A DNA stretch of 64,000 nt from Nitrospira sp. SB0662_bin_26. GTDB taxonomy: Bacteria > Nitrospirota > Nitrospiria > Nitrospirales > UBA8639. Below the pieces are notes generated by a model. It did no database searches and was not told where the DNA came from. It was given only the letters and a program-made list of their open reading frames with translations. The stretch is taken from the NCBI GenBank assembly GCA_009840285.1, contig VXOF01000009.1:3-64002 (forward strand), in the 5' to 3' direction. The position numbers were made by a program, and so were the translations under genes. Position 1 is the first letter of the stretch, and each line of letters starts with the position of its first letter. Shown here piece by piece: positions 5,946 to 25,752 of this stretch.

Positions 5946-5966
5946 TTGCTTGTTCTCCTGGTTGTG

Positions 5967-7132: not shown

Positions 7133-7157
7133 TCCCAAAGCTCCTTCACGAGCAGCA

Positions 7158-7331: not shown

Positions 7332-7558
7332 TTTCGACCTTCAGTCATTTCGTCGGCCGCACGACGGAACCAAGCGATCGTTCGCTCAAGATGATCGACT
7401 CCATAGAGCCTCGCAAATTCTCTGGTCTTTGCCTGCTTGTCATCTTGCAATTCAGCCAAGCGTTCTCGGATAAACGCCGGCGTCAACCGGATTTTGCAAC
7501 GGACCTCGATGCAGTTTCGCCATTGCTTGTACGAACTAGGAATGACGTCATCGCTCAT
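7328..7558 (-). CDS. Hypothetical 76-aa protein
   Basis: ATGA overlaps with both neighbours (7555..8253 and the COG0523 fragment). No family recognised. Confidence 0.5.
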
Positions 7559-8253
7559 GGTTGACTCGCTCCTAGGAACGCATTGAAATTGGATGCCACT
7601 CGAAACGACAACTCGCGCCAGGCCGAGGCAAAATTCTCGGCTGGCACGACTGGTCGCGTGCCGTTGTCCCACTCAAGCAGGGTTGATCGTCGGTACTCGA
7701 TCCCCAATTGCTCGACGATGTTTACCTCGTAACGCCACATCCAATCGATCAAATCCAAGGTCAACGTTGCGCACGCATTTCGCTGGGATTCAGTCGGCGC
7801 GTTCAACTTCGGGAGATCGGTATCGGACCAGGGTGGACAATCCAGCGTCGCATGTGTTGTATAGCGAGGTCGAAACTCGGAGCGAGGCAGGAAGACGCCA
7901 CCCCACTGACCATCTCCGTAGAACACACCAAACCCACGCAGCACAACACATCGTCTCCGCGGCATCGCCAAGGCATACACGCTCGCACATTCTTTGCGAT
8001 CGGTGGGCGGCTCAATGCGGTCAAAGCCGATCTCGAGCAGCCAGTTGCCTTCCGGTCGCACAATGTCGCGACCCCAGCACCACACCTGTTGGCTGAGCAA
8101 ACTCACCGCTTGTTCAAGGAGTTCACCTTCAGCATGTTCGTGATCATTCACTTGAAGTGCTACCAACATCTCAGTCAGCCTCGGGAGTCGCAATCGATGC
8201 GATGTTTGCCAACAGCCATGCGGAGGCAGCAAACAACTGCAACCAATCCCCAC
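7555..8253 (-). CDS. Hypothetical protein (start uncertain; alternative Met at 8169)
   Basis: Long open frame on the operon strand, coupled to the downstream gene. No motif recognised. Confidence 0.5.
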   Translation of the reverse strand: MGIGCSCLLPPHGCWQTSHRLRLPRLTEMLVALQVNDHEHAEGELLEQAVSLLSQQVWCWGRDIVRPEGNWLLEIGFDRIEPPTDRKECASVYALAMPRRRCVVLRGFGVFYGDGQWGGVFLPRSEFRPRYTTHATLDCPPWSDTDLPKLNAPTESQRNACATLTLDLIDWMWRYEVNIVEQLGIEYRRSTLLEWDNGTRPVVPAENFASAWRELSFRVASNFNAFLGASQP

Positions 8254-8457
8254 TGGAGCTGATCCCGGAAGTCAGCATGCTGGCAATCCAGCAAACGCTG
8301 GCAGCCGTTTGTCCAAGCCATTCGACGCGCAGCGCCCGTGCTAGTCGGCTTCGCCCCGCGCCAGACGCGATCCCCCTCCTCGCGGCCTCGCTCGTCGCGT
8401 TCGGTCCGCTCGAAGGCGCGGCGAGCGCCCACCGGGCGACCCCTTCGTCGTTCCCCG

Positions 8458-9588
8458 TCAACATACGCACTCCTCCCCACAGCAGGAGAGGTCATCGAGG
8501 TACATGCCCCACTTGCGGTAATTCTCCAACTCTTCAGCCGGCAGCCCCAGGGACCCGGCAATCGCCTTGGCAACCACGGCGAATCGCTGTCGATACTTGT
8601 AGATAAAGCAAAAGGAATGGTTAGCGTGACGCACGGCGGGCCCGCACAGAAACAGGCCGGGCACAATTGTCGACTCATCGTGCTCGCTCATGAGCGGAAA
8701 GCCGTCGTCGCGTCGCTCGAACAAATCTGCGACCAGCTTGTGACTTCCTTCAAATCCACCCGCCCAGAGTGGCGGAACGCGAGTTTGAAACCGGCGTCCG
8801 TCCTGTGCCGTGACTTCATACGTGGCGTCCACGCGGGTGACAGAGGCGATTGGCGTTTCCGGAAACAACTCCACATACTCCTCAAACCAATCTTCTCGCA
8901 TCCGTTCGAGCGAATACGTGGACAGTGCGACACTGGGATCGGAACTTTGGTCTTTCCATGGACAACCTTTATCGAACAACTGTACCCGTTTGTCGCGATA
9001 CGCCAGGTGGTAGGCCGCGTCGACGCCACTCTCGTAGCCACCGACAATGATGAAGTCGTCTCCGTCAAGTTCTTCATAACTGGCAATTGTTGCCGTGTGT
9101 CGACAGAGTTCGCTGCCGACAAACCCATTCAGACGTGGGTATTGGAATTCACCGGCCGCCCAAATGACATGCCTGGCTCGCAAGGCCTCGTCGGCTGTAT
9201 CGATGCGAAAAACGTCGCCAACTTTTGTTATCCGCGTCACGCTGGTCTTCTCGCGTATCGGCAACTCGAAAAACTTCGCGACTCCTCGCAAATGCGACGC
9301 GTATTCCTCGCCCGTCGGATGCTCAACCTCCAAGCTGAACGCGGGCGAAACACCAATCGCGATCGAGTTCAAATCGAGCATGCCAATCGAATTGGTCGGA
9401 AACGAGGGGGTGATGAATCGAGTCTCGGACGGCCATGAGGCAAACGATGATCCGACCGTTCGTCGCTCGAGCACGATAAAGTTCTCAATCCCCGCATGCC
9501 TGAGGGCTATCGCAACCCCCACACCCGCGGCACCGCCACCGACGACTACGACATCGTAAGTCTCGACGTTACTTGCAATCGTCATCAA
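8458..9588 (-). CDS. FAD/NAD(P)-binding oxidoreductase (flavin-monooxygenase/pyridine-nucleotide-disulfide-like) with a Cys-rich C-terminal tail
   Basis: N-terminal dinucleotide fold YDVVVVGGGAAGVGVAIAL...LERR and a second GG motif FIIVGGYESGVDAA. The C-terminus is ...LDDLSCCGEECVC. Confidence 0.8.
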   Translation of the reverse strand: MMTIASNVETYDVVVVGGGAAGVGVAIALRHAGIENFIVLERRTVGSSFASWPSETRFITPSFPTNSIGMLDLNSIAIGVSPAFSLEVEHPTGEEYASHLRGVAKFFELPIREKTSVTRITKVGDVFRIDTADEALRARHVIWAAGEFQYPRLNGFVGSELCRHTATIASYEELDGDDFIIVGGYESGVDAAYHLAYRDKRVQLFDKGCPWKDQSSDPSVALSTYSLERMREDWFEEYVELFPETPIASVTRVDATYEVTAQDGRRFQTRVPPLWAGGFEGSHKLVADLFERRDDGFPLMSEHDESTIVPGLFLCGPAVRHANHSFCFIYKYRQRFAVVAKAIAGSLGLPAEELENYRKWGMYLDDLSCCGEECVC

Positions 9589-9766
9589 GCGCTCCCCTCG
9601 GTAACTTCACTGCGACAACAACCTCACGGACACCCGTAACGGCGGTTCAGCAGGTGAGCGTGAACCGACACGATTCCGCCCGGCATGCGTGAGCACGGCC
9701 TGCCCTTCCTGCGGATAAGCAAACTCGGCGAACATTTCACAAAGCTGTCCCGCGCGCATCATGCCC

Positions 9767-9925
9767 TTACCGCTTTTCTTTGTGGACGGCATGCTTCCGG
9801 CAGTACGAACAATATTTTTTCAGTTCGATCCGGTCGGGATCGTTTTTCTTGTTTTTGGAGGTCCAATAGACCGATTTGCCCGGCGTCTCACATCCGGTGC
9901 AGGCAATGGCAATCGTGACACGCAT
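9767..9925 (-). CDS. rpmG: 50S ribosomal protein L33 (zinc-ribbon C+ form)
   Basis: 52-aa ORF found by hand: [52 protein letters not shown]. Both CxxC pairs are present. AGGAG RBS 8 nt upstream. Lies immediately after rpmB. Confidence 0.85.
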
Positions 9926-9946
9926 ACGCTAAACTCCTGAGGCCCG

Positions 9947-10183
9947 TTAGATGTGTTCACCGGCCGCCCGCATGTCGGCAACGACGCGGGCCAGCCCCTT
10001 TTTATCGATAATTTTCATGCCGTGGGTTGAAACCGACAGGGTAATCCAACGATTCTCTTCCTGCAGAAAATAACGTTTCCGATGCAGATTCGGAAAAAAC
10101 CGCCGCTTGGTTTTGTTATTGGCATGACTCACACGATGACCGGACATAGGCCGCTTTCCGGTGACCTGACAACGTTGTCCCAT
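9947..10183 (-). CDS. rpmB: 50S ribosomal protein L28
   Basis: [34 protein letters not shown]...IDKKGL matches L28. AAGGAGG 7 nt upstream of ATG 10183. Confidence 0.9.
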
Positions 10184-10336
10184 CAACACACCTCCTTAGC
10201 ATCGCGTCAACCATTTAAATGTGAACATTCCCTTTTCTCATGACTCCTGCTGGGAGGCTCCTGCCGTGGCCATGTAGCCTGCCTGTTTTCCCGGCCTGGT
10301 CTTCTAAACGGATCGACAAACGAAGTCCACAACTCC

Positions 10337-11638
<1,302 letters not shown>

Positions 11639-11651
11639 CCGTTATCCTGTC

Positions 11652-12920
11652 CTAGTCTGAGCCTCCGTCGTTTTCTCGTGCATTAGCATGGGAGATCGCG
11701 CGGGCGAAGGGATCGTCGAACCGCCGCCAGACCGACTCCCCCTCCAGTATCTCAGAAGGCGTCAACAAACAGCGGTGAAGTTGACGACGCCAGGACGACA
11801 CATCCAATCGATAGCCGATCCAGCCGAACGCCTGCCGTCGGTCGCCGAACTCGACCGACCAATGCTCTTTCAGTTGTGTTTGGAACTCATTATCAGCCGG
11901 CCACTGAGCCCGGGGAGTGGCCACCCACCAGTCGCCCACACACTCGAAATGCCGCACTCCCGCCGTCTGTTCCAAGGAAAAGCACCGTTCCGGTTGTGAC
12001 GCAATCCAGAAATGACCTTGGCACCGCAGAATTCCCGGCCAATCGGACTCGATCAGCTCCCATAGCCGCTGCGGGTGGAAGGGACGCGTAGCTCGAAAGG
12101 CCCCCATCGCCCAATAGGACGATCGAATCGTCGGCATCGGCGCTCCCTGGATCAGCTTCGCCCAGCCTGGTTGAAAACTGATCGGCATCGAGGCAGGACT
12201 ACGCTCGTTGACAATCTGTCCCACCACATCCAACCCCTCCGCTATCGATAGAATCGTGGCTTCCGGGTTCAACGTCTCGAGCAAGGACCGGAGACGAGCC
12301 TGCTTACCCAATGACAGCCCTTCGGTTTTGGATATCACCAGTACCGTGGCATACTCCACCTGCTCTACCACCAATTCCGACACCATCCGTCCATCGTCCG
12401 TCCCACAACTCACGCCTCGGGTCTGTAAATCGTCTTCAGAATGCAGATCGTCCCATAACGTCCGGCCGTCGACGACCGTGACCAAGTGATCAAGCCACGC
12501 CTTCGATGCCAAGGGTTCGCGGTTCTCCCAGGCGTCGTTGAACACTTCGGCGACCAAGACGGGCTCGACCAGGCCCGAGCACTCGAGCAGCACCCGATCA
12601 AACCGCTGCATGTCGGCAATCGCCGTGATGGCGCTCGCCAAACTGTCGCGCAAGGAACACCCGACACACCGTTGAATCAACTCGGCCAAGACTTCACCGA
12701 GACGGAAGACCTCGATCCCCAGAGATCGACAGAAGTCCGCATCCAATCCTGCGTCGCTACGGTCATGGACCAGCACGGCCAACCGACCGGACGCCCAGCC
12801 GGCGACAACTTTCTGCACCAGCGTGCTCTTCCCGGCTCCGACAAAACCACAGACCGCGGTGACCGGAAGCCGCGTGATCTCGGCTGGACGATAGCCTTTG
12901 GGATGGATACCGGGGTTCAT
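11652..12920 (-). CDS. Divergent COG0523-family paralogue (degenerate CxCC and NKxD motifs)
   Basis: GFVGAGKST is present. The metal motif reads RCVGCSLRD and G4 reads ISKTEG. ECSGLVEP replaces ESTGxxEP. The C-terminal half is collinear with the neighbour (RPFHPQRLW). AAGGAGG lies before ATG 12920. Confidence 0.8.
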   Translation of the reverse strand: MNPGIHPKGYRPAEITRLPVTAVCGFVGAGKSTLVQKVVAGWASGRLAVLVHDRSDAGLDADFCRSLGIEVFRLGEVLAELIQRCVGCSLRDSLASAITAIADMQRFDRVLLECSGLVEPVLVAEVFNDAWENREPLASKAWLDHLVTVVDGRTLWDDLHSEDDLQTRGVSCGTDDGRMVSELVVEQVEYATVLVISKTEGLSLGKQARLRSLLETLNPEATILSIAEGLDVVGQIVNERSPASMPISFQPGWAKLIQGAPMPTIRSSYWAMGAFRATRPFHPQRLWELIESDWPGILRCQGHFWIASQPERCFSLEQTAGVRHFECVGDWWVATPRAQWPADNEFQTQLKEHWSVEFGDRRQAFGWIGYRLDVSSWRRQLHRCLLTPSEILEGESVWRRFDDPFARAISHANARENDGGSD

Positions 12921-12952
12921 AGCACCTCCTTGTTCTTGAGCACGAGCACTCA

Positions 12953-13022
12953 CTACCAGCTCGATTTCCGCACACCAGGGATCCGACCCTGGAGTACGAG
13001 CAGACGAAAATCGATCCGCGTA
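12953..13022 (-). pseudogene. Ghost of an rpsN 3' end (about 70% DNA identity to 13316..13385)
   Basis: My hand alignment gives about 48/68 identical positions to the last ~22 codons of the adjacent S14 gene. The frame is disrupted. Confidence 0.35.
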
Positions 13023-13069
13023 CACTTACCTCCCTACTTCGAGATTGGGGGCTCTAGGCCCTGACTTCA

Positions 13070-13285
13070 TCACTTTTCGGACTGCCGACCGAACGGTAAC
13101 AGCGCCATGTGTCGCGCTCGCTTGATCGCTCGCGCGATCTCCCGCTGCCGATGTAGACTATTGCCCGTCATTCGTCGAGGCAGGATGCGCCCGTTTTCCG
13201 TTATGAACCTCCGCAGCCACTCCGCATTTTTCCAATCCACCGGTGTCGTATCGTCGATCACGCGACGGCGTCGTCCTTCAAGCAT
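13070..13285 (-). CDS. rpsR: 30S ribosomal protein S18 (Cys-less form)
   Basis: ...[42 protein letters not shown] is the S18 core. Contains no cysteine. Confidence 0.85.
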
Positions 13286-13315
13286 GCTCGTTTCTCCATA
13301 TACAATGAATTGCGC

Positions 13316-13621
13316 CTACCAACTCGACTTTCTCACTCCGGGAATACCCCCTCGTAATGCCAACAAACGAAAATCGATGCGGGACATGCCGAATCGTCTC
13401 AGGAATCCACGGGTCCGGCCTGAAATCAGACATCGGTTTCTCACTCGGCTTGGGCTGGCATTGCGGGGCAGCGCCTGCAGCCCCCGTTGCGCCTCCATCC
13501 GCTCTTCCAACGAAGACCCAGGATTTCGGATAACTTCCTTTAAAATGGCTCGTTGTTGGGCGTACTGCTTCACCACCTCTTTTCGTTTTTCATTTTTAAT
13601 GATGCAACTTTTTTTGGCCAT
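13316..13621 (-). CDS. rpsN: 30S ribosomal protein S14, long 101-aa C- (non-zinc) form
   Basis: [15 protein letters not shown]...[41 protein letters not shown]. Lacks the CxxC-x-CxxC of the short Zn-ribbon S14. Confidence 0.9.
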
Positions 13622-13732: not shown

Positions 13733-13900
13733 ACGCTAGTTGGTTGGAAATTAAATACAACTGGGCAGCGAGAGAAACGAGTTTATGGGGTGAAAATGAT
13801 TTGAAACGCCAACTGAAAGCTAGCTCACCAGCGATAGTTTCTGCCGTGTATACTTATACGCGGCTTATACGCGGACACTTCGCTTTCATGAATAACTTTT

Positions 13901-14322: not shown

Positions 14323-14550
14323 TCAGCAGCACGAGCAGCTACTGCCCTGTGATTTGGCGCATTTCGTGCCCTTGAGCATCACATTGCCGCCTCCGAAAAG
14401 CCGGCGGACGGGCGTCCCTGGTGGTGTGTCACCCGGATGTTGGTTTGCCCGAGCACACAGTTCCCCCCAAGTAGCCAGCGTTTCTTTGATGCTGTGCCGA
14501 ACGGTCAGCGTCGTATCATTGGCGTCGCAATGATAGTCGTATGTAATCAT
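14323..14550 (-). CDS. FmdB-like zinc-ribbon protein with eroded Cys ligands and a Cys-rich tail
   Basis: MITYDYHCDANDTTLTVRHSIKE... mimics the FmdB N-terminus MPxYEYxCxxCG, but only one Cys of each pair remains. The tail is ...KCAKSQGSSCSCC. GGAGG lies 7 nt upstream and TATAAT at 14574-14579. Confidence 0.55.
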   Translation of the reverse strand: MITYDYHCDANDTTLTVRHSIKETLATWGELCARANQHPGDTPPGTPVRRLFGGGNVMLKGTKCAKSQGSSCSCC

Positions 14551-14580
14551 GTGTGAACCTCCATACATGTGTGATTATAG

Positions 14581-14896: not shown

Positions 14897-14928
14897 TTGA
14901 CTCTGTACTGAGGTACGGAGTGTATACT
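14897..14928 (+). promoter_or_regulatory. MerR-type promoter: TTGACT, 20-bp spacer with dyad CTCTGTAC/GTACGGAG, then TATACT
   Basis: Over-long 20-bp spacer carrying a 7/8 inverted repeat, the hallmark of MerR-family activated promoters. Lies directly upstream of the merR-like gene. Confidence 0.65.
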
Positions 14929-14934
14929 TCGGAT

Positions 14935-15369
14935 ATGGAAAAGACCGATAAAGAACTGATGACGATTGGAACCTTAGCCAAGGCAGCCGGGGTTGGGGTA
15001 GAGACGGTCCGCTTTTATCAGAGGAAGGGTCTTCTGGAAATGCCATTTCGAACGTCAGGTTTTCGAAAGTATTCGGAATCTGATGTGCGGACAATCAAGT
15101 TTGTCAAGAGAGTTCAGGGGCTTGGATTCTCTCTCAAAGACGCTCAAGATCTCCTGGACCTTGCTCTTTGTTCCCGGGAAACACGACCTTTTATTGCAAA
15201 GACTTGTCACGAGAAGATCGATCAAATTGAAAAGAAGATAGCCGACTTGACCAGGATGGTGGGAATGCTTCACGAGTTTTCCCTGATCTGTGGAAGTGAA
15301 GCGTCGAATGATTCTGAATGCAGGCTCCTGGATTGCTTTGAAAACAATTGGGAGTGCTGCGAAAAATGA
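14935..15369 (+). CDS. MerR-family heavy-metal-responsive transcriptional regulator
   Basis: MTIGTLAKAAGVGVETVRFYQRKGLL HTH, a coiled-coil dimerisation helix, and a Cys-rich C-terminal loop ...LICGSEASNDSECRLLDCFENNWECCEK. The alternative start ATG 14959 gives the canonical N-terminus. Confidence 0.85.
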   Translation: MEKTDKELMTIGTLAKAAGVGVETVRFYQRKGLLEMPFRTSGFRKYSESDVRTIKFVKRVQGLGFSLKDAQDLLDLALCSRETRPFIAKTCHEKIDQIEKKIADLTRMVGMLHEFSLICGSEASNDSECRLLDCFENNWECCEK

Positions 15370-15382
15370 GGAGGAAAACGCA

Positions 15383-15538
15383 ATGAAAGACTCCTGTGGA
15401 TGCTGCAAAGATGGCAAGTGTGCCTGCAAGACAACGACGTGTGGCTGCTGTTGTGGAACTGAAGTTTGTCGCTGTGACGCGTCATGCGTATGTGGTGATT
15501 GCTGTAGCGGGTGCTGCAAGTCCTCGAGCCGTGTTTAA
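15383..15538 (+). CDS. Metallothionein-like Cys-rich peptide (51 aa, 17 Cys)
   Basis: MKDSCGCCKDGKCACKTTTCGCCCGTEVCRCDASCVCGDCCSGCCKSSSRV. AGGAGG RBS lies upstream. Starts 13 nt after the merR stop. Has CxC/CC/CCC motifs with no His or aromatic residues. Confidence 0.65.
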   Translation: MKDSCGCCKDGKCACKTTTCGCCCGTEVCRCDASCVCGDCCSGCCKSSSRV

Positions 15539-15571: not shown

Positions 15572-16438
15572 TTACTTCGCGGGCATGGGACCGACTAAGA
15601 GCTGGGGATCTATTCGCTGGGTAAAGAGGTTCATCCGCCAATCCAAATGCGGACCCGTCGCACGGCCCGATTCACCCAATTCAGCGATGACGTCTCCTTG
15701 CGTAATATGATCTCCTTTCATTACCAAAATTTTGTTCAGGTGAAGAAACGTGGAGGAAAGACCATGACCATGGTCAAGAATCAAGGTTGCCCCCGAAAAA
15801 AACATATTCGGCTGGGCTAGGGTGACCACTCCACCCGCCGGGGCTTTGACTGGTGTTCCAATGGCCCCTGAAATGTCTACACCAAAATGTGGCCGCCGGG
15901 GCTCACCGTTCAGGATGCGTTGACTACCATAGACTCCGGTTATTTTTCCGATGACAGGCCAGATAAAACCATCCTCAAAATCCGTACGAGGGGCATCCAG
16001 CTTCCTGGCAGCTTTAGCTAGCCGGGCGTCTTCTTGAATTCTGGCAAGATCCCGTTTATGAGGATTGACCTTTCGAGGGGATAGCCCGTTAATGCGCTGA
16101 ATCTTATATTTCCTTTTCTTAACAGACAGAGCACGATGTTCTTTCTTCCCGTTGGGCCAGGTAATTGCGAGCTTCACCGTCGGGGATGCATCTCTCCCAA
16201 ACCCCACCAAAAACATTCCTTGGGGAGATACGCGGACTTTCCGTCCATCTACCCATACTTTGGCCCCCGGAGCAGTCTTGCCTTGAACCAGACCGCCCTG
16301 AACCATCGGGCCCTCCAATGAAAGACTCTCTTGTCCTACCCCTGCCGCCTGAACAGAAACCGCTCCCATCCATCCCAAAGCCAATAAGGACAGAACCCAC
16401 ACCATAGTTTTCAATGACTGTATTTCCATCTTGCCCAC
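15572..16438 (-). CDS. M23/LytM-family zinc metallo-endopeptidase (secreted)
   Basis: Signal peptide, then HFGVDISGAIGTPVKAPAGGVV and ...LDHGHGLSSTFLHL..., the HxxxD and HxH motifs of M23. Confidence 0.88.
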   Translation of the reverse strand: MGKMEIQSLKTMVWVLSLLALGWMGAVSVQAAGVGQESLSLEGPMVQGGLVQGKTAPGAKVWVDGRKVRVSPQGMFLVGFGRDASPTVKLAITWPNGKKEHRALSVKKRKYKIQRINGLSPRKVNPHKRDLARIQEDARLAKAARKLDAPRTDFEDGFIWPVIGKITGVYGSQRILNGEPRRPHFGVDISGAIGTPVKAPAGGVVTLAQPNMFFSGATLILDHGHGLSSTFLHLNKILVMKGDHITQGDVIAELGESGRATGPHLDWRMNLFTQRIDPQLLVGPMPAK

Positions 16439-16591: not shown

Positions 16592-16906
16592 TCAGGGCTT
16601 GCCATGTGAATGCCCTCCATGCGACCGGCAATCATGTCCACAGCCCTGTATGCCCAACCCGCCACCGTAAATGTTCTTGAGCGTGGGGGGAGGAGCGGTC
16701 GAGCCCGGTGGAGGATCCGATGACGCCCGGCTTTGGGCCATCACGTCAGCCCCTGCCGAAAACACCGACGGGATCTTCTCCAACGGTGCCCCGCATTCGC
16801 GACAGGCCGTCACCGGGGCATCTTGCATGTTCTGCCAAAAGGCAAACCGCTTGGGACAAAACAGCGATTTCAAACAATATTCGGCTTGATATTCATAGAT
16901 GGGCAT
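16592..16906 (-). CDS. FmdB-like zinc-ribbon protein with a His/Cys-rich C-terminal tail
   Basis: MPIYEYQAEYC...TACRECGAP has the FmdB architecture, with the first CxxC altered to Cx5C. The tail is ...GCGHDCRSHGGHSHGKP. Starts 6 nt after the pyrC stop. Confidence 0.6.
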   Translation of the reverse strand: MPIYEYQAEYCLKSLFCPKRFAFWQNMQDAPVTACRECGAPLEKIPSVFSAGADVMAQSRASSDPPPGSTAPPPTLKNIYGGGLGIQGCGHDCRSHGGHSHGKP

Positions 16907-16912
16907 ACATCC

Positions 16913-18214
16913 TCATTCATCTTGCGTTCTTTGAAACACCGTCACCCCGCCGACCAAGGTCCGGACAACCGCACCGCGAAGTCGCCACCCGGCAAACGGG
17001 CTGTTTCGCCCCTTCGACCGAAACCGTTCCGGATCAACCGTCCATTCCATCCTTGGATCGATCAACACCACATCAGCCTGCGCACCGGCGGCCAACGTCC
17101 CGCACGATAGGCCAAGCAAACGGGCCGGGGCTGACGTCAGTTTTTCTATCATGGATTCCAGGGGCAACAGGCCCTCTTCTACCAGCCGAAGAGAAAGCCC
17201 TAAGGCCGTTTCAAGCCCGACTATTCCAAATGGAGCTTTGGACAATCCCCACTGTTTCTCATAGACGGCATGCGGAGCATGATCGGTGGCTATGGCATCA
17301 ATGGTGCCATCCTGCAACCCGTCGCGGACCGCCTGGACATCCGCATTTCGCCGGAGGGGAGGATTCATTTTCGCCAATGCGCCCTGCTCCCGCACCGCCT
17401 CTTCGGTCAGCATGAAATGATGGGGGCACGCTTCCGCAGTCACCCGAATTCCGGCGGCCTTGGCCGTTCGGACGGCCTCCACGGCATTCGCCGTACTGAT
17501 ATGCGCGATATGCAGATGACATTCCGTTGCCTTGGACAACGCGATATCCCGTTCCACCATCTTGGATTCCGCTTCAGAAGGGATGCCTCGGACTCCCAAG
17601 AGACGGGAAAGGGGCCCCTCGGCCATACATCCGCACCCGGCCAAAGACAGATCTTCGCAATGATCGATCACCGGCAGATCCAAGACCCGAGCCTCCAACA
17701 TCGCCTCTCGCATGACGGCGTGCTCCATCACGGGACGGCCATCATCCGAGACAGCCATACATCCGGCCCCACGTAAGCCCCGAAGGTCTGCCGACTCTTT
17801 CCCTTGTAATCCCTTGGTAATGGCCCCGATTGGATGTACGCGAACCAGCCCGGTAGCCTGCACACGGTCGTGGATGGTCTGGGTCACAGCAGGGGAATCA
17901 TTAACGGGATTGGTATTGGGCATGCAACAGACGGTCGTAAACCCACCGGCAGCGGCTGCAGCAGTTCCGGTCTCGATGGTTTCTTTGTACTCATAACCCG
18001 GTTCCCGTAAATGGACGTGCAGATCCACCAAACCTGGCGTCACAATCAACCCGTCGGCCTTGAAGTGGTCGGCATGCGAGGGAAGAGCCGTCCGGGGAGG
18101 CGTCACCGCAGCGATACGCCCTTGGCTGATCCAGACATCCCCCACACCATTCCACCGTCCAGGGTCGATGACCCACCCTCCTGAGATGATGAATAAGTCG
18201 GCAGGATGGTTCAG
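16913..18214 (-). CDS. pyrC: Dihydroorotase (start uncertain: CTG 18214 or TTG 18289)
   Basis: GLVDLHVHLREPGYEYKETIETGTAAAAAGGFTTVCCMPNTNP and downstream amidohydrolase motifs. There is no ATG/GTG between the ZIP stop and the conserved LFIISGGWVIDP N-terminus. Confidence 0.85.
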   Translation of the reverse strand: MNHPADLFIISGGWVIDPGRWNGVGDVWISQGRIAAVTPPRTALPSHADHFKADGLIVTPGLVDLHVHLREPGYEYKETIETGTAAAAAGGFTTVCCMPNTNPVNDSPAVTQTIHDRVQATGLVRVHPIGAITKGLQGKESADLRGLRGAGCMAVSDDGRPVMEHAVMREAMLEARVLDLPVIDHCEDLSLAGCGCMAEGPLSRLLGVRGIPSEAESKMVERDIALSKATECHLHIAHISTANAVEAVRTAKAAGIRVTAEACPHHFMLTEEAVREQGALAKMNPPLRRNADVQAVRDGLQDGTIDAIATDHAPHAVYEKQWGLSKAPFGIVGLETALGLSLRLVEEGLLPLESMIEKLTSAPARLLGLSCGTLAAGAQADVVLIDPRMEWTVDPERFRSKGRNSPFAGWRLRGAVVRTLVGGVTVFQRTQDE

Positions 18215-18222
18215 GGATCCCC

Positions 18223-19017
18223 CTAGTGCGGGAGCATGGTCAGCATGCCGATGGTCAGCATGCCGGTCAGCATCATGGCAAACGGCCAAGCCCCACTGGC
18301 CGCCCCGTGTCGGCCATGTAAGTCGGGAACCAGATCGGCAAGACCGATATACAAAAAACTGGCGGCGGCCAACGTCAGGGCATAGGGAACGATCGGCTCC
18401 GCATAGGCCAAGCCTCCAAACGCCAACACCACCCCTGCGAGGGTCGCCATACCAGACAGGGTATTGGCCCAAAACGCCTGCCACTGGGAAAATCCGCTCG
18501 ATAGCAGAATGGTGAAGTCACTCAACTCCTGCGGAATCTCATGAACCAGAACCGCCAACGTCGTGACCAGACCCAGGGCAGGGGAGACGACACAGGACAC
18601 GCCGATGGCAATACCGTCGGCAAAGTTATGAACGGCATCGCCGACCAGGATCAATGTTCCGGCTTCCCGGCGAACCATCGAGCCCTTCGCATGCCCGTGA
18701 GGCTTGAGCTCAACAGCCTCCCCGTGCGCATGGCGCCAGATCACCATCCATTCCAGAATAAAGAACAGGACCAGCCCCGCCAACAAAGCGATGCCCGCCT
18801 CATTAATCGAAATGCCTTCGAGTGCCTCGGGAAGCAGCCCGATGGTCGCGGTCGCCAGCATCGTGCCGGTCGCAAACCCCAGCAGATTCGGCATCATCCA
18901 TTGCCGCCACCCATCCGGAATAAACAGAACCAGACCGGCAGGCAATAAGGCGCCCAAGCTGCCCAGTAACCCCATCAAGATGACAAACAGCCATGTGGAT
19001 TCTTGGGGCAGGCTCAC
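18223..19017 (-). CDS. zupT: ZIP-family divalent metal (zinc) transporter, ZupT-like
   Basis: Multi-TM protein with a His-rich loop HGEAVELKPHGHAKG, plus the VHNFADGIAIG and LVHEIPQELSDF signature helices. GTG start. Confidence 0.9.
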   Translation of the reverse strand: MSLPQESTWLFVILMGLLGSLGALLPAGLVLFIPDGWRQWMMPNLLGFATGTMLATATIGLLPEALEGISINEAGIALLAGLVLFFILEWMVIWRHAHGEAVELKPHGHAKGSMVRREAGTLILVGDAVHNFADGIAIGVSCVVSPALGLVTTLAVLVHEIPQELSDFTILLSSGFSQWQAFWANTLSGMATLAGVVLAFGGLAYAEPIVPYALTLAAASFLYIGLADLVPDLHGRHGAASGAWPFAMMLTGMLTIGMLTMLPH

Positions 19018-19080
19018 GCGTTTGGTCCGATCCGGTCAGGGCCACAGACCTGACCATGATACATCGAAACCCCCTCGGTG

Positions 19081-19659
19081 TTAGCCATGTCCATGGACCG
19101 GTGGCCGTTCCTCTTTGACACGTGGCAATAATTCGGTGAGGTTGCAAGGGCGATGATCTATGTCGAGCTGGGGAAGGATGATCTGTTCCATTCCCAAGCG
19201 GCAGGCTCCGGTCGACCCCGGCAGGAGAAACACAATGGTGTCGCCGCACACCCCGGCATCCGCCCGGGATTGAATGGTAGAGGTCCGGATTTCACGGTAG
19301 CTCAGCCAGCGAAATAATTCGCCGAAGCCCGGAATCGGCTTGGAAAACAGCGAACGGACGGCCTCCGGCGTCACATCACGTTGGGTCACGCCGGTCCCGC
19401 CCGTCACGATCACGAATTCAATCGCCGGGTCCGCCACCCAGGCGGCGATCGTTTCCCGAATGGTCTCATATTCATCCGGACATAGTTTGCGGTCGGCCAC
19501 GCGATGCCCCGCGCCCATCAATCGATCGACAATGGTGGATCCACTCGTATCCGTTTCGATCGTTCTGGAATCCGAGACCGTCAAGACCGCCACCGCCACG
19601 CTGAGGCCGGCTCTCTTAAGGTCTGCTGTTGCCGTGGTTGCACCGTCTGCCTGACTCAT
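19081..19659 (-). CDS. moaB: Molybdenum cofactor biosynthesis protein B (MoaB/MogA family)
   Basis: VLTVSDSR...DTSG...[18 protein letters not shown]...[23 protein letters not shown]......F.LPGSTGAC is collinear with E. coli MoaB. Confidence 0.88.
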
Positions 19660-20351
19660 GCCATCACCTCATGGTTCGATAAGATAATCATCCGCGTGCC
19701 GACTCCGCCGTTCTCCCCGAATGACACACGCCGGACGGCCGGAATCCAGATCCCGGCCACCTCCACAAATTCGTTGACATAACTTTCCATCCCGATCACC
19801 GCCTGACCATCCAGCGAAAAGTAGGTCATCACGTAATGACTGGACGCTTGCCGGCCATCCGGGGCGGTGTCGTACCGTTCTATGGTATTCACCCGGCGTT
19901 CGGTCATGGGGGTGATGCGCCCGATTTGCGTATATTGCCGGTTCTTGAGGCGGTACCAGGACTCGAGTCGTCCTCCGGTCAACAGCACACGGCGCCCCCG
20001 GGGATGAGCACAACCGGCATCCTCTTCGGAATCGAAGGATAAGATGTAGCGGCCGTCACCATCCTCAAACGGCGAATAGGCCAAATGCATGCCCTGCGTC
20101 CACAACCGTTCACGCACCCATTCCTGTAACGCCGGATCGGTGCCCGGCAAGTCCACGGTGGTTTCTTTTCGAGGCACCAACTGAACCGTTCCCCGGATAA
20201 TCGTGCCGTTGTCGTTGAGGGTGACGTCGGCTCGATACCCGCCAAACTCTTTGGGCCACTTGTACATCCGGGCATGGGCCTCCCGAACCAGACGTCGCGC
20301 CTCGGGGTCGTCGGTCAGCTTCAGGCCGGTTGCCATTGTTGCGTCAGTCAC
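19656..20351 (-). CDS. Conserved hypothetical protein (resembles the DUF3386 family by recall)
   Basis: [32 protein letters not shown]... The start overlaps the upstream stop (GTGA) and the stop overlaps the moaB start. Confidence 0.55.
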
Positions 20352-20668
20352 GCCGTTTCCCGCCTCTCCGATACATCGTGGCTTCCATCATCATGATGAT
20401 GTTCCCCATCCTGCGCCAGGGCTTGCACATCCGGTTGCGTGACCTCCTCCGCCGTTTTATGAATCTTGAACTGGGTCGTCTTTCCCGGCCCTTCCAAAAA
20501 CGCAATGACCGTTTCAATGGGCGGACAACCTGGCTCCCGGCACTCCAATTCGGTCACCATGACCGTGGTCTCTTCCGGCAAAGACCAGGCCGAACGAGCC
20601 CAGGATTTGATGCGATCCGCCTGATCCGGATTGATGCGGGGGCGCCCTCCTCCGAATAAATTCATCAT
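20348..20668 (-). CDS. Small 106-aa protein with an ELECREPGCPPIETV motif and an acidic His-rich tail
   Basis: Coupled at both ends (ATGATGA with the WD40 stop). C-terminal ...QDGEHHHDDGSHD. No family recognised. Confidence 0.55.
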   Translation of the reverse strand: MMNLFGGGRPRINPDQADRIKSWARSAWSLPEETTVMVTELECREPGCPPIETVIAFLEGPGKTTQFKIHKTAEEVTQPDVQALAQDGEHHHDDGSHDVSERRETA

Positions 20669-21732
20669 TTCTCTCCCACGCCTTCCACGACAAAGAGCGC
20701 CACCGTTCCGTCATCGGCGCCCACCGCCAGGCAGACATCGGTCGGACTCCAGGCCACACAGGACAATCCTCGCGACACACGCAGTTCCTGACTCACCCTG
20801 GGCTTCGCCTTCCCTGGCTCCCACAAGCAGAGCAACCCGTCTTCTCCCACCGTCGCCACCACCCGCTGACGAGGGTGACAGGCAATTGCTTGAATCCATC
20901 CCAGATGGCCGCTCAAAAGCCGGCCACTGGATCCTTCGAATTTTTTGGCCGACCACGCCACCAAATCAGGACCGGCTGCTGTCCATAAAAATTCTCCATA
21001 AGGATCGAAGACCACATGCCCGACCTTGCAGGGATAACCGGCCATATGCCAGTTCTGCCCGGTCGAGAGACTCCATAAATGGACCGACCCGTCCAAATTT
21101 CCCGCGGCCAGATACTGCCCGTCCGAACTGATTGAGAACGACAGGAGTGCCCCATCATAGGGAAACGTATTCACGGGAGAATCCATCCCGACCTGCCACA
21201 GCGTAACTCCTCCGAAACAGGAGGAAAAAATTTGGCCCGGATACCCCTTTCGCCAACAAAGATCGGATATAGAACTCTTATGATCAGAGGTCTCCCATTC
21301 CACGGAGCACCCGCCCGACTCCGACCACTTCAGGATCTGCAGGGTTTTTCCCGCGGTCATCGCCAACCGTTCGCCGCCGGACTCCCACGCCAGATGCTCC
21401 ACCCAGCCCTTTCCATCTTCAACCGGAACCACGGCACGCTCTTCCCCGGAACCGACGTCCCACACACGCCCCACTCCGTCTTCCCCGGCGGTTGCGAGAA
21501 TTTTTCCTCCGGGATGCCATCCCTCCGCCAGTACCGCGCCTTGATGGTTCGTGTTACGGAAGACACACTCCTGGGATCCCACATGCCACACCGCGACCTG
21601 GCCGCTCGCATCCGCAACTGCCAATCGGCTGCCGTCCGGCGAAAACATGACGGCATGGATGTATTCATCCAATTGAAACGTCCCGATCGACTGCAATTGA
21701 ATTTTGGCCCGAGGCCGTACTAAACGAGGCAT
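20665..21732 (-). CDS. WD40-repeat beta-propeller protein
   Basis: Repeated ...GH...V..V.FSPDG..LA....DG.V..W... units across the whole ORF. The MPRLVRP start overlaps the COG0523 stop by 13 nt. Confidence 0.8.
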
Positions 21733-22691
21733 GTCCGAAACCCTTCGACGAGCCGGTCCCGATCGAGGTTGCGCCCTATGAACACCAACTGATTCCCCCT
21801 GGTTTCTTTGGCCCTCCATGGCCGATCAGGACGCCCGTCGAACAACATATGCACGCCTTGAAATACAAAACGTTCATCCCGTCCCTTCACATCCAAAATA
21901 CCCTTCATGCGAAAAATGTCGGTGCCCATGCCCGAGAGCACGTCCCGAAGCCAATCATTCGTCCGAGCCTCATCCACCTGCCCTGGTTCGGCAATCGACA
22001 CGGAGTAGACCGACGGATCATGCTCGTGGGCTTCCTCGCCTAAAAAGTTCGGGTCGATTTCCAGTTTCCGGCCCAGATCAAAAGCCCCCACATTCAACAG
22101 GCGTTCGATGTCCAACCGGGCATCGCGGGTCCGGTAGATTTTGGTCATGGGATTGATGGCCCGCACGCGGGCCTCCAGTCGCTCCACCTCCCCTTCGTCC
22201 ACCAGATCGATTTTATTCAGGAGAATCACGTCCGCAAATGCGATCTGCTCCTTGGCTTCGGGACTGGTGTCCAGATGCTCCCAGATATGCTTGGCATCCA
22301 CCACCGTCACAATGGCATCCAGCATCAACCGGCGCTTCATATCATCGTCTACAAAAAAGGTTTGTGCGACGGGTGCCGGATCGGCCAGCCCCGTGGTCTC
22401 GATGACCATATAGTCGAACCGCTCTTTCCGCTTGAGCAAATTGGAAATTATCCGGATCAGGTCTCCGCGAACGGTACAACAGATGCACCCATTGTTCATT
22501 TCAAAGATTTCTTCCTCCGCCCCCACCACCAACTGATTATCAATTCCGACTTCACCGAATTCATTCACAATCACCGCCACCCGTTTCCCATGCTCGGTGG
22601 TCAGAATACGATTCAACAAGGTTGTCTTGCCCGCACCAAGAAATCCCGTCAACACCGTGACCGGGACTTGAGCCTGCTCTTCGACTTTCAT
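21720..22691 (-). CDS. COG0523-family G3E GTPase (short YciC/ZigA/YjiA-like zinc metallochaperone type)
   Basis: [40 protein letters not shown]4 LLNKIDLV, and a His-containing linker GEEAHEHD. The start taken is MKVEEQ. Confidence 0.9.
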
Positions 22692-22905
22692 ACTTGCCCC
22701 CTTTTTTGTTCGAACATTTTCCCGGCGCGACCGATCCCGCTTATCCCCGCCTCCGGAACGGGCGGTCCGTGCGATTCCTAAAACTTTTACCCTGGGACTC
22801 CCACGGGTAATGGTGAGTCTTACCCGGACGGCGAAGCGAACATGAATCGCTTCGGAACTGAAGCAAACTGGTGAGTTAAACTTAGCCGAATACACGAAAA
22901 CGGCA

Positions 22906-22918
22906 ACGAAATTTTCAT
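22906..22918. promoter_or_regulatory. AT-rich near-palindrome ACGAAATTTTCAT (candidate Fur/Zur-type box) in the 530-bp divergent intergenic region
   Basis: 10/13 self-complementary. Resembles the TGAAAAT-n-ATTTTCA class. Lies about 215 nt upstream of the COG0523 start. Confidence 0.25.
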
Positions 22919-23222
22919 GAACGGTCTAATTGTTTCCTCGATCCTCCCCTATACGGTTATGAAACAGTCTATTCTGTTTTTCTTCTCCCGGCTGCAAACA
23001 GGGGAACCTGTGCGCCCAAGAGAATGAATGAGACAGGAGAAGACATCTATTGCAAAAACGTCATGGGTTCGATAGCGGGCACGACAGCAGTTTGCGATCG
23101 ACAGACGGTTTTCCTGTAGCCCTTTCGATAGGAATGCTGCTACTATGGTTGCCGGCTGTGGGTCTAGAGTAGCAAAAAATCCAGCATTCGTTTGACCGAC
23201 GAGAACTGAAAGGGGTGGGGAG

Positions 23223-23637: not shown

Positions 23638-23738
23638 GGGGCTGGGCCCTGTGCAGCAGAATCTTGTGAACCCCGCCAGGTCCGGAAGGAAGCAACGGTA
23701 AGCAAGCGAGTCTGTGTGCTACAGGATCACCCGGCCCC
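23638..23738 (+). ncRNA. ffs: Signal recognition particle RNA (small 4.5S-type, ffs)
   Basis: CCAGGTCCGGAAGGAAGCAACGGTAAGC matches the conserved SRP domain IV (E. coli CAGGUCCGGAAGGAAGCAGCC). The 5' GGGGCTGGGCC pairs with the 3' CCCGGCCCC. Sits in the classic position upstream of dnaX. Confidence 0.8.
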
Positions 23739-23823
23739 GCTTGTGACGATCTTCATGTCGTGACCACGTGGCGGTGCCTCAAGAGATGACGTGCGGCGCT
23801 AGGTGGAGCCGAAGGAACGAGTG

Positions 23824-25752
23824 ATGGACTACCAGGTTTCCGCCAGAAAGTTTCGTCCGGGCACATTCGAAGAGTTGATCGGACAGCCGCACGTCGTGCA
23901 GACGTTACGGAACGCCATCCTTCGGCAGCAGGTTGCCCATGCGTATCTTTTTTCCGGCATGCGCGGCGTGGGCAAAACCACGGCCGCCCGGATTCTGGCC
24001 AAAGCGCTGAATTGCGGCCGGAGCGAAGCCCCGAGCGGAGCCGACGGGCCTGAGCGGAGTCCTGAGCAGAGTCGAAGGGGTCCGACCCCGGAACCCTGCG
24101 GTCAGTGCGAGAGTTGTTTGGAAATTACGCGCGGCAACTCGGTTGATGTCATCGAGATTGACGGCGCCTCGAATACCGGCGTGGACGACGTCCGGGAGCT
24201 TCGCGAAAACGTCAAATTTTCGCCGTTCCGGGGCACCTATCGGATCTACATCATCGACGAAGTCCACATGCTCTCCAATTCGGCGTTCAACGCGCTCTTG
24301 AAGACACTGGAAGAGCCCCCGCCGCACGCGGTGTTTATCTTTGCGACGACTGAAGTCCACAAAATCCCACCCACCATCACGTCTCGCTGCCAACATTTCA
24401 ACTTTCGCCGGATTCCCCGGCGGGAGATCATTGCGCGTCTCCAGGAAGTCGTGACACGCGTCGGCGTCACGATCAATGAACGAAGTCTGGGGGCGATGGC
24501 CAGGGCGAGTGAAGGCAGTATGCGCGACGCGCTCAGTCTGTTGGATCAGGCCGTAGTGTTCGGCGGCCAGTCGATTACCGAGCACGACGTGGATGAGATG
24601 CTCGGGGCCGTTCCCGACGAACTGGTGAGTCGCCTCGTGCAGACGGTCGTGACCCAAGATCCGGCCGCGGCCGTGGCCCTGGTCGGCGAGGTGGTCGATC
24701 ACGGGTACGACCTGCGGGCCTATTGCGGGGCGGTGGTGGAGCGAATGCGTCACCTGATGATTGCAGCCGTGGTGCCGGGGTTCGAACAAGCGCAGGGCTT
24801 GATGGATTTGCCGGATGAGGAGGTGAAACACTTGTTGACTGAAGCCAAGTCGTTCTCGGTGGAGCAGGTACAGGAGGTCTTTCACCTCTTTGCCCAGGCC
24901 GAAGATCGCCTGCGGTCAACGGCGCATCCCCGGTTTGTCTTTGAAGTAGCCGCCGTTCGCGCGGCGCGGTTGCTGCAGCCCGGGGCGCAGGTTACGCGGC
25001 AGGCCGAAACGGGACGGAGTCCGCAACCACAGGCTGCAAGCGCGCCGGCAGAAAAACCCCGGCCGGCGTCCGGGGCGCCGCCGTCACCGGTAAGACAACC
25101 TGATCATCGCGCAGGAACGTCAGGTCGGCCCTTCGGCTCCGCTTCCGTCGACTCCGCTCAGGACAAGCAGGGCAGGCCCCCGGCTCCCGTGTCCGGGCAG
25201 GGAGGGCGTCCCTCTCCTCTGGAGCAAAAGACCCTCGCTTCCAACGCGGCGAGCACGTCTCGCGCCGCTCGGCCTGCGGTCGAGGCCAAATCGGTGCCTC
25301 AACCGAGACCGGCGTCCCCGGGAAGTCCGCCGGCTATCCGGGAAGAAGACTGGCAGCGGGTCGTCGATTCCGTGATTCAGGATTCTCCCAACATTGGAAC
25401 CCATTTGGAAATGGGAACGTTGGTGAAAATCGAAGGCAACCAGGTCATCGTGGGGTTTCCCAAAACCGCAGCGGTGGCCTGTTCGAGAATCCAGAAAGAA
25501 GAGACCCGCGCATTGATTGCAAAGGTCTGCCAAACCGTCGCAGGGGCGAGCATTCACCTTCGGGTGGTCGAATTGACCGGAGAACCGGGCGACGGTCTCA
25601 CGATCAGACAGATGCGAACCAAACGGCGGGAACAGGATGACGAGGCCTTGTTGGAACAGGCACGAGCGAATCCCATGGTGAAACAGGCTATGGAACTGTT
25701 TGGCGGCGAAGTGGTGAAGGCCAGTCGCCCGAGTGGAAAGAAGGAGGCGTAA
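23824..25752 (+). CDS. dnaX: DNA polymerase III subunits gamma/tau
   Basis: ARKFRPGTFEELIGQ.HV...L.NA......HAYLFSGMRGVGKTT, a CGQCESC zinc module, and a Pro/Ala-rich linker. Confidence 0.92.
   Translation: MDYQVSARKFRPGTFEELIGQPHVVQTLRNAILRQQVAHAYLFSGMRGVGKTTAARILAKALNCGRSEAPSGADGPERSPEQSRRGPTPEPCGQCESCLEITRGNSVDVIEIDGASNTGVDDVRELRENVKFSPFRGTYRIYIIDEVHMLSNSAFNALLKTLEEPPPHAVFIFATTEVHKIPPTITSRCQHFNFRRIPRREIIARLQEVVTRVGVTINERSLGAMARASEGSMRDALSLLDQAVVFGGQSITEHDVDEMLGAVPDELVSRLVQTVVTQDPAAAVALVGEVVDHGYDLRAYCGAVVERMRHLMIAAVVPGFEQAQGLMDLPDEEVKHLLTEAKSFSVEQVQEVFHLFAQAEDRLRSTAHPRFVFEVAAVRAARLLQPGAQVTRQAETGRSPQPQAASAPAEKPRPASGAPPSPVRQPDHRAGTSGRPFGSASVDSAQDKQGRPPAPVSGQGGRPSPLEQKTLASNAASTSRAARPAVEAKSVPQPRPASPGSPPAIREEDWQRVVDSVIQDSPNIGTHLEMGTLVKIEGNQVIVGFPKTAAVACSRIQKEETRALIAKVCQTVAGASIHLRVVELTGEPGDGLTIRQMRTKRREQDDEALLEQARANPMVKQAMELFGGEVVKASRPSGKKEA

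Follow-up and report, generated by a model that had tools for sequence, protein, structure and literature searches.

The DNA analysed here is a 64,000-nucleotide (nt) stretch of contig VXOF01000009.1 from Nitrospira sp. SB0662_bin_26, referred to as the window, and our subject is a run of eight genes on its minus strand (16592-22691). In the order of reading, these genes encode a COG0523 GTPase, a WD40 beta-propeller, a small protein of 106 amino acids (aa) that we call p106, a DUF3386 protein, MoaB, a ZIP-family metal importer, the type I dihydroorotase PyrC and an FmdB-like zinc-ribbon protein; the first three will be called the trio. COG0523 GTPases are widespread candidate zinc chaperones. 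A preliminary description, made from the letters alone, had read the run as a translationally coupled operon, and all of its open reading frames (ORFs), strands and listed junctions match the sequence. Successive spacings read from the sequence are -13, -4, -4, -4, +63, +8 and +6 nt. The COG0523 gene, with its stop at 21720, overlaps the WD40 gene, with its ATG at 21732, by 13 nt, an overlap that recurs in one distant Nitrospira genome. The TGA of the WD40 gene and the ATGATG start of p106 share ATGA (20665-20668), p106 and DUF3386 share GTGA (20348-20351), and DUF3386 and MoaB share ATGA (19656-19659), all on the minus strand. A 63-nt gap separates MoaB from ZIP, the ZIP stop lies 8 nt before the CTG at 18214 that most likely begins PyrC and is preceded by AGGGGGA, and 6 nt lie between PyrC and the FmdB-like gene. 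Overlaps of 4 nt are common in bacterial operons; because short overlaps are ordinary there, those seen here point to one operon without being an oddity in themselves. Taken together, the junctions indicate that the eight genes form one compact operon.

Searches with Pfam and NCBIfam profile models bore out the domain calls of that description (cobW with CobW_C, WD40, DUF3386, MoaB, Zip and type I dihydroorotase) and placed the 106-aa protein in no family. The first gene (21720-22691, minus) encodes a short, YjiA/ZNG1-like G3E GTPase of 323 aa (PF02492, 213 bits; PF07683, 89.5 bits), with the P-loop GFLGAGKTT (Walker A), the metal motif GCICC and an RMKG motif in the C-terminal domain. It combines the features that define COG0523, namely a CobW nucleotide-binding domain, CobW_C and a CxCC motif, with the genomic clustering with WD40 and zinc-uptake genes that marks subfamily 5. 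In COG0523 proteins the CxCC metal motif lies between Switch I and Walker B (PMC2770081), and the RMKG-type motif has recently been proposed to be an internal arginine finger (2026 preprint). Among solved structures, E. coli YjiA is the best match of the window protein (E 7.6e-59); the score on the YjiA model NF008578 is 247 bits, under the cut-off of 361, and that on the model of the cobalt chaperone CobW, TIGR02475, is 218 bits, likewise under its cut-off. The start codon, ATG at 22691, is preceded by AAGGGGG, and a 68-codon in-frame upstream extension from GTG 22895 was rejected because homologues begin with MKVEEQ and one relative (L017) lacks about 130 nt there. No ZNG1-type N-terminal CPxLxP docking tail is present in the protein, whose start precedes the P-loop by 8 residues. 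Judged by eye, the G-domain is ~80% identical between Nitrospirota and an acidobacterial member of the trio. The trio GTPases of acidobacteria and cyanobacteria carry an extra beta-rich insert of about 150-170 aa, which the window protein lacks.

The second gene (20665-21732, minus) encodes a WD40 protein of 355 aa without a signal peptide (PF00400, 98.9 bits against a threshold of 27). Four repeats are individually significant, and the protein is of a size expected for seven blades. Across 72 loci, its orthologues have the motifs WVE (110-112) and MxGYPxK (230-236) in common, which are specific to the family, and no conserved Cys or Cys/His cluster was found among them. Given the conserved family motifs and the lack of such a cluster, a docking scaffold fits this protein better than a metal site. 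The best 60 of its 151 sequence matches in the PDB are generic bacterial WD40 proteins. The propeller belongs to an orthologous group of its own, which accompanies this COG0523 GTPase.

The third member, p106 (20348-20668, minus), stands alone as a protein of a family that has neither a Pfam nor an NCBIfam model: no model in either collection matched it or 60 diverse relatives. The family is found in 381 species genomes by pattern scan, with one genome per species, and 1,336 representative clusters belong to it at E <= 1e-3. Its best 150 representatives are all stand-alone proteins of 61-165 aa. The signature of the family is VTELxCxEPGCPPxETV, in which C43, C48, E52 and T53 are invariant across the broad family. 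The preliminary description had called this protein His-rich and noted its GEHHHDDGSHD tail. That tail, acidic and His-rich, turns out to be variable and often absent among relatives, and it is the invariant CxxxxC loop that defines the family. In an AlphaFold2 (AF2) model with a predicted local distance difference test (pLDDT) score of 78, p106 is predicted to fold as alpha-beta-beta-beta-alpha, with both cysteines in a surface loop between beta1 and beta2.

Several affinities of p106 were considered and set aside. A likeness between its CPPIET and CPELVPIET raised the idea of a free-standing ZNG1 CPxLxP tail, which a low-power test did not support: a p106 profile search of PDB sequences returned MAEA as its sole match and no ZNG1 tail, and in the AF2 model CPPIET is located in a folded beta-hairpin loop. 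The MAEA match itself (8pjn_i residues 44-105, E 5e-4) was judged to be due to chance; this region of MAEA is helical, but the p106 segment aligned with it is predicted to consist of beta-strands. Homology of p106 to the ~170-aa insert of longer COG0523 proteins was also rejected (hhalign probability 0.3%). As to naming, UniRef labels two ~90-aa homologues 'Nitrate reductase', and RefSeq calls them hypothetical proteins; the homologues checked were WP_053380794.1 (N. moscoviensis), WP_007917828.1 (Ktedonobacter) and AM1_3029 (Acaryochloris). No nitrate-reductase or NarM-associated model of Pfam or NCBIfam matched p106 or its 60 relatives, and the label is probably an automatic mis-annotation.

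The window proteins were compared with all ORFs of the 80 best p106 loci. Of the loci with enough flank, COG0523 and WD40 genes adjoin p106 in all 44 from Nitrospirota and in 15 of the 17 from other phyla. The trio occurs in two orders, COG0523-WD40-p106 and p106-COG0523-WD40, and in at least eight phyla, including Nitrospirota, Acidobacteriota, Planctomycetota, Chloroflexota, Cyanobacteria, Firmicutes and Actinobacteriota; among its carriers beyond Nitrospirota are Acidobacteriota, Planctomycetota, Ktedonobacter, Acaryochloris, Heliomicrobium and Rubrobacter. On one planctomycete-like contig the order is p87-COG0523-WD40-ZnuA-ZnuC-ZnuB. Every close homologue of the window proteins belongs to a Nitrospira or Nitrospirales genome. 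All eight genes are retained in the closest clade, and other Nitrospira keep the trio and its extension in the order COG0523-WD40-p106-(COG0523)-DUF3386-(MoaB)-(COG0523)-ZIP, which agrees with the gene-order conservation that the preliminary description had expected of a real module. DUF3386 is present in 43, MoaB in 37 and ZIP in 45 of the 53 Nitrospirota loci, often with one or two additional COG0523 paralogues between them; alongside the trio, they were found only in Nitrospirota among the loci sampled. Since the trio is widespread and DUF3386, MoaB and ZIP accompany it only in Nitrospirota loci, the proteins of unassigned function divide into a core trio and a Nitrospirota extension. The earlier proposal that WD40, p106 and DUF3386 make up one module next to the GTPase thus holds in part: the propeller and p106 belong to the COG0523 core, and DUF3386 was found with the trio only in Nitrospirota loci. 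None of the three belongs to a family with an established, unrelated function, an outcome that would have spoken against that proposal.

The extension begins with the DUF3386 protein (19656-20351, minus), which has 231 aa, is cytoplasmic and matches PF11866 over profile positions 2-210 of 211 (93.2 bits against a threshold of 25). Its subfamily is almost confined to Nitrospirota, and a profile search for cyanobacterial or plant members recovered only this Nitrospirota-centred subfamily. The AF2 model (pLDDT 90) predicts an open beta-barrel with helices. Foldseek relates it to LolA/LolB/RseB (E 1.8e-4 to 8e-4, probability 1.0), with poor superposition (template modelling (TM) score 0.28-0.40, root-mean-square deviation 8-16 A). 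The residues H116 (in HPRG), E81, E158, the NTIERY motif and several Arg are invariant; because H116, E81, E158 and the arginines are conserved, a polar ligand site is suggested. The protein is probably a ligand- or metal-handling accessory of ZIP or MoaB. Elsewhere, in one contig a ZIP gene is followed directly by DUF3386 and the trio genes do not adjoin it, and a distant contig has the order DUF3386-MoaB-ZIP-...-PyrC-S14-L28. A p106::DUF3386 fusion ORF of 338 aa (protein P0158, JGI sample 3300056388) occurs on a 12.6-kb metagenomic contig with the order FUR-104aa-COG0523-WD40-[fusion]-76aa-MoaB-ZIP. It may be real or may reflect a one-base assembly error at the GTGA overlap, and as a single case it is weak evidence.

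MoaB (19081-19659, minus; 192 aa) is of the E. coli MoaB type (TIGR02667, 236.5 bits against a threshold of 222.4; E 1.8e-45 to E. coli MoaB, 1R2K). Its presence in the cluster in 37 of the 53 Nitrospirota loci makes it no accident of this genome. The suggestion that it bridges zinc limitation and molybdenum cofactor supply is pure speculation, and we found no paper in the searchable literature that ties MoaB to Zur or to zinc limitation. The importer that follows (18223-19017, minus) has 264 aa from GTG 19017, with an alternative ATG 42 nt downstream, and fits the broad Zip family (PF02535, 126.6 bits). The more specific name ZupT, given to it earlier, is not borne out: the ZupT equivalog NF003243 scores 67.5 bits against a cut-off of 252. 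The spacer between MoaB and ZIP contains a 7-bp GC-rich hairpin, GGTCAGG-N8-CCTGACC (19034-19055, minus), without a T-run, which may be a processing or stability element within the operon.

PyrC (16913-18214, minus; TIGR00857, 423 bits against a threshold of 279) comprises 433 aa when read from CTG 18214. There is no ATG, GTG or TTG for it between 18289 and 18145, its N-terminal residues are conserved from CTG 18214, and relative L016 has a GTG at the same position after GGAGG, with a 2-nt indel that breaks the upstream extension; CTG 18214 is therefore most likely the start. The metal ligands of the amidohydrolase fold are established as HxH, Asp, His, His and Asp. Compared with the B. anthracis dihydroorotase 3MPG (E 1.6e-115), the motifs DxHVH, DDG, HCE, H(I/V)xH(I/V)ST and ATDHAPH are aligned. 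As every metal-ligand motif is kept, PyrC looks like a zinc user and possible client rather than a zinc-free substitute. It is intact in all close relatives and lies near the cluster in about 35 Nitrospirota loci. The last gene (16592-16906, minus) encodes the 104-aa FmdB-like protein. It falls outside FmdB proper, with both scores just under the cut-offs (PF09723, 31.0 bits against 34.4; TIGR02605, 28.3 against 31.3) and with a first cysteine pair of the form C11x5C17 instead of CxxC; its C-terminal tail is rich in Cys and His (GCGHDCRSHGGHSHGKP). The gene lies downstream of the cluster in 15 Nitrospirota loci. Further on, an M23 peptidoglycan metallopeptidase with a signal peptide (15572-16438, minus; NCBIfam matches to Pgp3, ShyA and MepM) follows the FmdB-like gene, as it does in 4 relatives. 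No terminator-like site was found in the 153-nt gap between them, and the M23 gene may be the ninth of the operon or a unit of its own.

Downstream on the same strand lies an island of zinc-sparing genes (5475-13621, minus), which includes a second operon (9947-13621) with S14, S18, two COG0523 genes and L28. S14 (13316-13621), S18 (13070-13285) and L28 (9947-10189) are cysteine-poor paralogues of the zinc-free type. A ZigA-like COG0523 gene (11652-13025) comes after S18, and a third COG0523 gene occupies 10337-11638; on the Mrf model NF047431 these COG0523 genes score 156 bits, under its cut-off. The rest of the island holds a flavoprotein (8458-9588), a HemB (6110-7138) with an Asp-rich motif (DVALDPYSSDGHDG) and a HisI with Cys residues present (5475-5945), all on the minus strand. 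The Asp-rich type of HemB is established as zinc-independent. S14/S18/L28, COG0523, HemB and HisI paralogues are classes listed for Zur regulons (Haas 2009, PMC2770081).

The eight-gene operon is preceded by a 5' leader (22692-22913, minus), conserved in the closest relatives except for the stretch lost in L017, and by the palindrome TTCATGAA (22914-22921, minus), which lies in the likely promoter region, ~220 nt before the COG0523 start. No riboswitch or other RNA of Rfam was found in the ~220-nt leader, and its folding energy is no better than that of shuffled sequences (z = -0.6). The 8-bp palindrome has 4 exact copies in the 64 kb, against 1.1 expected, and a second copy (13885-13892) lies upstream of the S14 operon. 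Both promoter sites and their flanks are conserved in at least 15 close relatives (L004-L020). The common TTCATGAA in the two promoters suggests co-regulation of the two operons and makes it a candidate shared operator or -35 element; a search for the longer ATTCATGAAA motif gave no enrichment. No described type of Zur box was identified in the window, and none has been described for Nitrospirota.

Relatives show a fuller regulatory arrangement. In about 30 genomes of other Nitrospira, a Fur-family gene, a ~100-aa ORF and a structured RNA precede the cluster on the same strand; the Fur-family gene is immediately upstream and co-directional in about 30 such loci, and it is also near the trio in four other phyla. 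Its promoter in L024-L056 reads TTGACA-17-(G/T)TAAAT followed by a TGCAA-N5-TTGCA palindrome ~20 nt upstream of the gene start, which likely represents an autoregulatory Zur-type operator in these lineages. The RNA, of ~127 nt, comes after the Fur-family gene and the ~100-aa ORF and lies 20-40 nt ahead of the first COG0523 gene (L001:7813-7939, L036:5803-5929, L044:5813-5939 and about 27 further Nitrospira loci). It is a three-way junction closed by a long stem, GGGGAAGAUCGGG...CCGAUCUUCUCC, and CUCAAGGGGUUGG is conserved in it; of its 45 predicted pairs, 19 show compensatory changes, and each locus has one strong plus-strand match (98-139 bits). No Rfam family corresponds to it. We propose it as a candidate for a new RNA that regulates in cis and may sense metal. 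The model of this RNA has no match in the window.

On balance, we think it likely that the run is a zinc-starvation response operon of Nitrospirales, which combines the metallochaperone trio, the Nitrospirota extension and zinc-requiring proteins. The zinc reading is well supported by genomic context and by relatives: the zinc-homeostasis setting first proposed from the gene content is upheld by the ZIP importer, PyrC, the adjoining zinc-sparing island and the Fur-family gene of relatives. In such a response, a single promoter ~220 nt ahead of the first gene would drive transcription of the whole operon, and translation of its genes would be tightly coupled. ZIP would import Zn(II) into the cytoplasm, and COG0523, WD40 and p106, presumably in one complex, would distribute it. 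The propeller, presumably cytoplasmic, would serve as a docking platform for the GTPase, the client or both, and the two thiolates of the exposed CxEPGCPP loop of p106 could share or relay metal with the CxCC site of the GTPase; two thiolates would not suffice for a separate site, but they would be well suited to complete or relay metal at CxCC. GTP hydrolysis would then power the hand-off of metal to apo-enzymes. Precedents for such a scheme are ZNG1-METAP1, where a COG0523 protein has its own means of docking, and the WD40 protein Cia1 in Fe-S delivery. Candidate beneficiaries of this local zinc supply are PyrC, the Cys/His-tailed zinc-ribbon protein and possibly the M23 peptidase.

A number of observations weigh against the zinc-starvation operon or against parts of it. 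The window contains no Fur-family gene (E <= 1), and the TGCAA-N5-TTGCA palindrome is absent from its promoters. TTCATGAA is short and may simply be a -35-like element, and PyrC may be the sole housekeeping copy rather than a client. No fusion of p106 with COG0523 or WD40 occurs among the top 150 representatives; p106 has just two invariant cysteines, and H70 is not invariant; and its predicted fold has no significant match in the PDB (best E 0.095, TM 0.42). Moreover, in 10-13 loci outside Nitrospirota the trio stands beside genes for CbiM, CbiN and an ABC ATPase, of the energy-coupling factor (ECF) type of Co/Ni uptake, and beside ArsR and CDF genes; the loci flanked by CbiM and CbiN are L058, L060, L062, L065-L069, L072, L074 and L076, from Acidobacteriota, Blastocatellia and Heliomicrobium. 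With such neighbours in Acidobacteriota and further phyla, zinc need not be the metal in every case, and the specificity of the trio may vary. The same loci encode two more unannotated conserved proteins, one of ~222 aa directly after p106 and one of ~146 aa with CxxGCCCG.

These flanking genes are an argument for a different account, in which the trio is a general or Co/Ni-directed, CobW-like metal-insertion module that was recruited locally into a zinc operon, its metal varying by lineage. ArsR regulators and CDF exporters as well as the uptake genes would fit it, and COG0523 does include the cobalt chaperone CobW, although the score of the window GTPase on the CobW model is under the cut-off. 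We regard this account as improbable, however, given that the transporter is a ZIP in the window and in 45 of the 53 Nitrospirota loci, that ZnuABC follows the trio in another phylum, that published clusters tie this COG0523 subfamily to zur and znuABC, and that the window has neither cobalamin genes nor a B12 riboswitch. About as improbable, in our estimate, is that WD40 and p106 do not bind the GTPase at all and are clients or regulators merely co-regulated with it, p106 as a zinc store or buffer or a thiol sensor and the propeller as a signalling scaffold. WD40 proteins have many unrelated roles, the His/Asp-rich tails of some p106 members resemble metal-buffering tails, and the top 150 p106 representatives are free of domain fusions, all of which would suit such a division. 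On the other side, the p106 Cys loop is invariant whereas the tail is unconserved, and the genes are strictly adjacent, in two orders and at least eight phyla, with overlapping stop and start codons, a pattern typical of subunits made in a fixed ratio.

Still less probable, to the point that we give it little credence, is an action of the module at the ribosome in zinc shortage, in which p106 would be an adaptor that binds the ribosome or RNA and the propeller would be a platform like RACK1. Analogues would be ZNG1-METAP1 at the nascent chain and the mycobacterial Mrf, which recruits a hibernation factor, and the literature ties both ZNG1/METAP1 and ZigA to the ribosome. The neighbouring operon, moreover, has alternative ribosomal proteins beside its COG0523 genes with their below-cut-off Mrf scores, and the best fold matches of the alpha-beta3-alpha p106 are hibernation-promoting factors and double-stranded RNA-binding domains. 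Those fold matches, however, fall short of significance, p106 has Cys, Glu and Pro as its invariant residues, not the basic ones expected for RNA binding, and no ribosomal gene adjoins the trio outside Nitrospirota. Beyond the zinc-starvation operon, which remains our preferred reading, a bolder version can be put forward only tentatively, as we doubt it more than we believe it: COG0523, WD40 and p106 might be an ancient obligate three-subunit metal insertase, the bacterial counterpart of ZNG1, in which the two cysteines of p106 and the CxCC of the GTPase form an intermolecular metal site and the propeller selects clients; in Nitrospirota, DUF3386 and MoaB would couple this insertase to some need of a nitrite oxidiser that depends on a molybdoenzyme. 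If true, it would provide the first defined partners of a bacterial COG0523 chaperone and a new small family of metal-relay proteins.

The pairing of COG0523 with WD40 is not new, as it has been published twice. COG0523 subfamily 5, which holds prokaryotic and most eukaryotic members, clusters with WD40 and znuABC (Haas 2009, PMC2770081), and cyanobacterial COG0523-WD40 pairs of branch 1a lie near zur/znuABC, the significance of the WD40 protein being called 'unclear' (Barnett 2012, PMC3323870). As in the window, the GTPase gene of these clusters directly adjoins the WD40 gene and has zur, znuABC or other zinc genes nearby. The locus of Acaryochloris marina AM1_3031 discussed by Barnett is L077 in our locus set and carries the p106 homologue AM1_3029. 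Unlike the present analysis, neither paper mentions the small Cys-loop protein, DUF3386 or MoaB, and both treat the part played by the WD40 protein as unclear; we found no mention of p106 or of DUF3386 in the searchable literature. What appears to be new here is p106 as an unannotated third member of the chaperone-WD40 module, together with the Nitrospirota-specific extension.

Comparison with other systems sets the trio apart in a similar way. Eukaryotic ZNG1 is a proven zinc chaperone for METAP1 and the sole COG0523 protein with a fully established client, and YjiA is its closest bacterial homologue (2024 review); bona fide clients of A. baumannii ZigA and MigC are still unidentified (2026 preprint). 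The window protein resembles ZNG1 as a COG0523 GTPase with a CxCC site and, presumably, a response to zinc shortage. ZNG1, however, docks on its client via the N-terminal CPxLxP tail, stated to be absent from bacteria (2024 review), and the window protein lacks that tail; the partner of ZNG1 is a MetAP, whereas the partner genes in the window encode the propeller and p106. Zur-regulated islands with COG0523 genes, for which we compared those of Pseudomonas and Cupriavidus, Acinetobacter ZigA, B. subtilis ZagA and the mycobacterial altRP-Mrf operon, are alike in that COG0523 is co-located with PyrC, HisI, HemB and cysteine-poor S14/S18/L28, just as the ZigA-like gene of the window follows S18. 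They differ in that WD40, p106, DUF3386 and MoaB genes are not part of them, and the Zur-regulated PyrC paralogue is without zinc ligands (Haas, PMC2770081), whereas PyrC of the window keeps them.

For the propeller, AztD offers a likeness, as a beta-propeller genomically associated with zinc uptake and CobW-family genes. However, AztD is periplasmic or on the cell surface and binds zinc, whereas the window protein is a canonical WD40 propeller with neither a signal peptide nor a conserved Cys/His cluster, and AztD is absent from the best 60 of its 151 PDB sequence matches. The seven-bladed eukaryotic WD40 protein Cia1/CIAO1 has a scaffold and client-docking role in the cytosolic Fe-S targeting complex. 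Cia1 is thought to act in Fe-S cluster delivery (PMC8469502). Its cofactor is thus an Fe-S cluster, and the window protein is related to it only by WD40 repeats, so that the comparison is an analogy only.

A GTPase that is nearly always encoded with the same two proteins makes these direct candidates for pull-down and structure prediction, and turns the question of bacterial COG0523 partners into a direct experiment with two named candidates. The trio also flags a large protein family (>1,300 representative clusters) that lacks a Pfam or NCBIfam model. Nitrospira are key nitrifiers that need a molybdenum enzyme, and the conserved MoaB/DUF3386/ZIP extension suggests a lineage-specific link between the supply of trace metals and the handling of cofactors.

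Several small features surround the two zinc operons. Between them, an 82-aa ORF (15290-15538, plus) has a very Cys-rich end (CGCCKDGKCACKTTTCGCCCGTEVCRCDASCVCGDCCSGCC), looks metallothionein-like and is overlapped by a gene for a MerR-family regulator (14920-15369, plus). An 81-aa ORF on the minus strand (14323-14568) without a Pfam match begins with ITYDYHCD, comparable to the MPIYEYQ of the FmdB-like protein, and ends with CAKSQGSSCSCC; it is possibly another degenerate protein with a zinc ribbon or a Cys tail. Beyond the promoter region of the operon, a bacterial small signal recognition particle RNA (RF00169, 65.8 bits; 23640-23739, plus) lies just upstream of dnaX (23803-25752).

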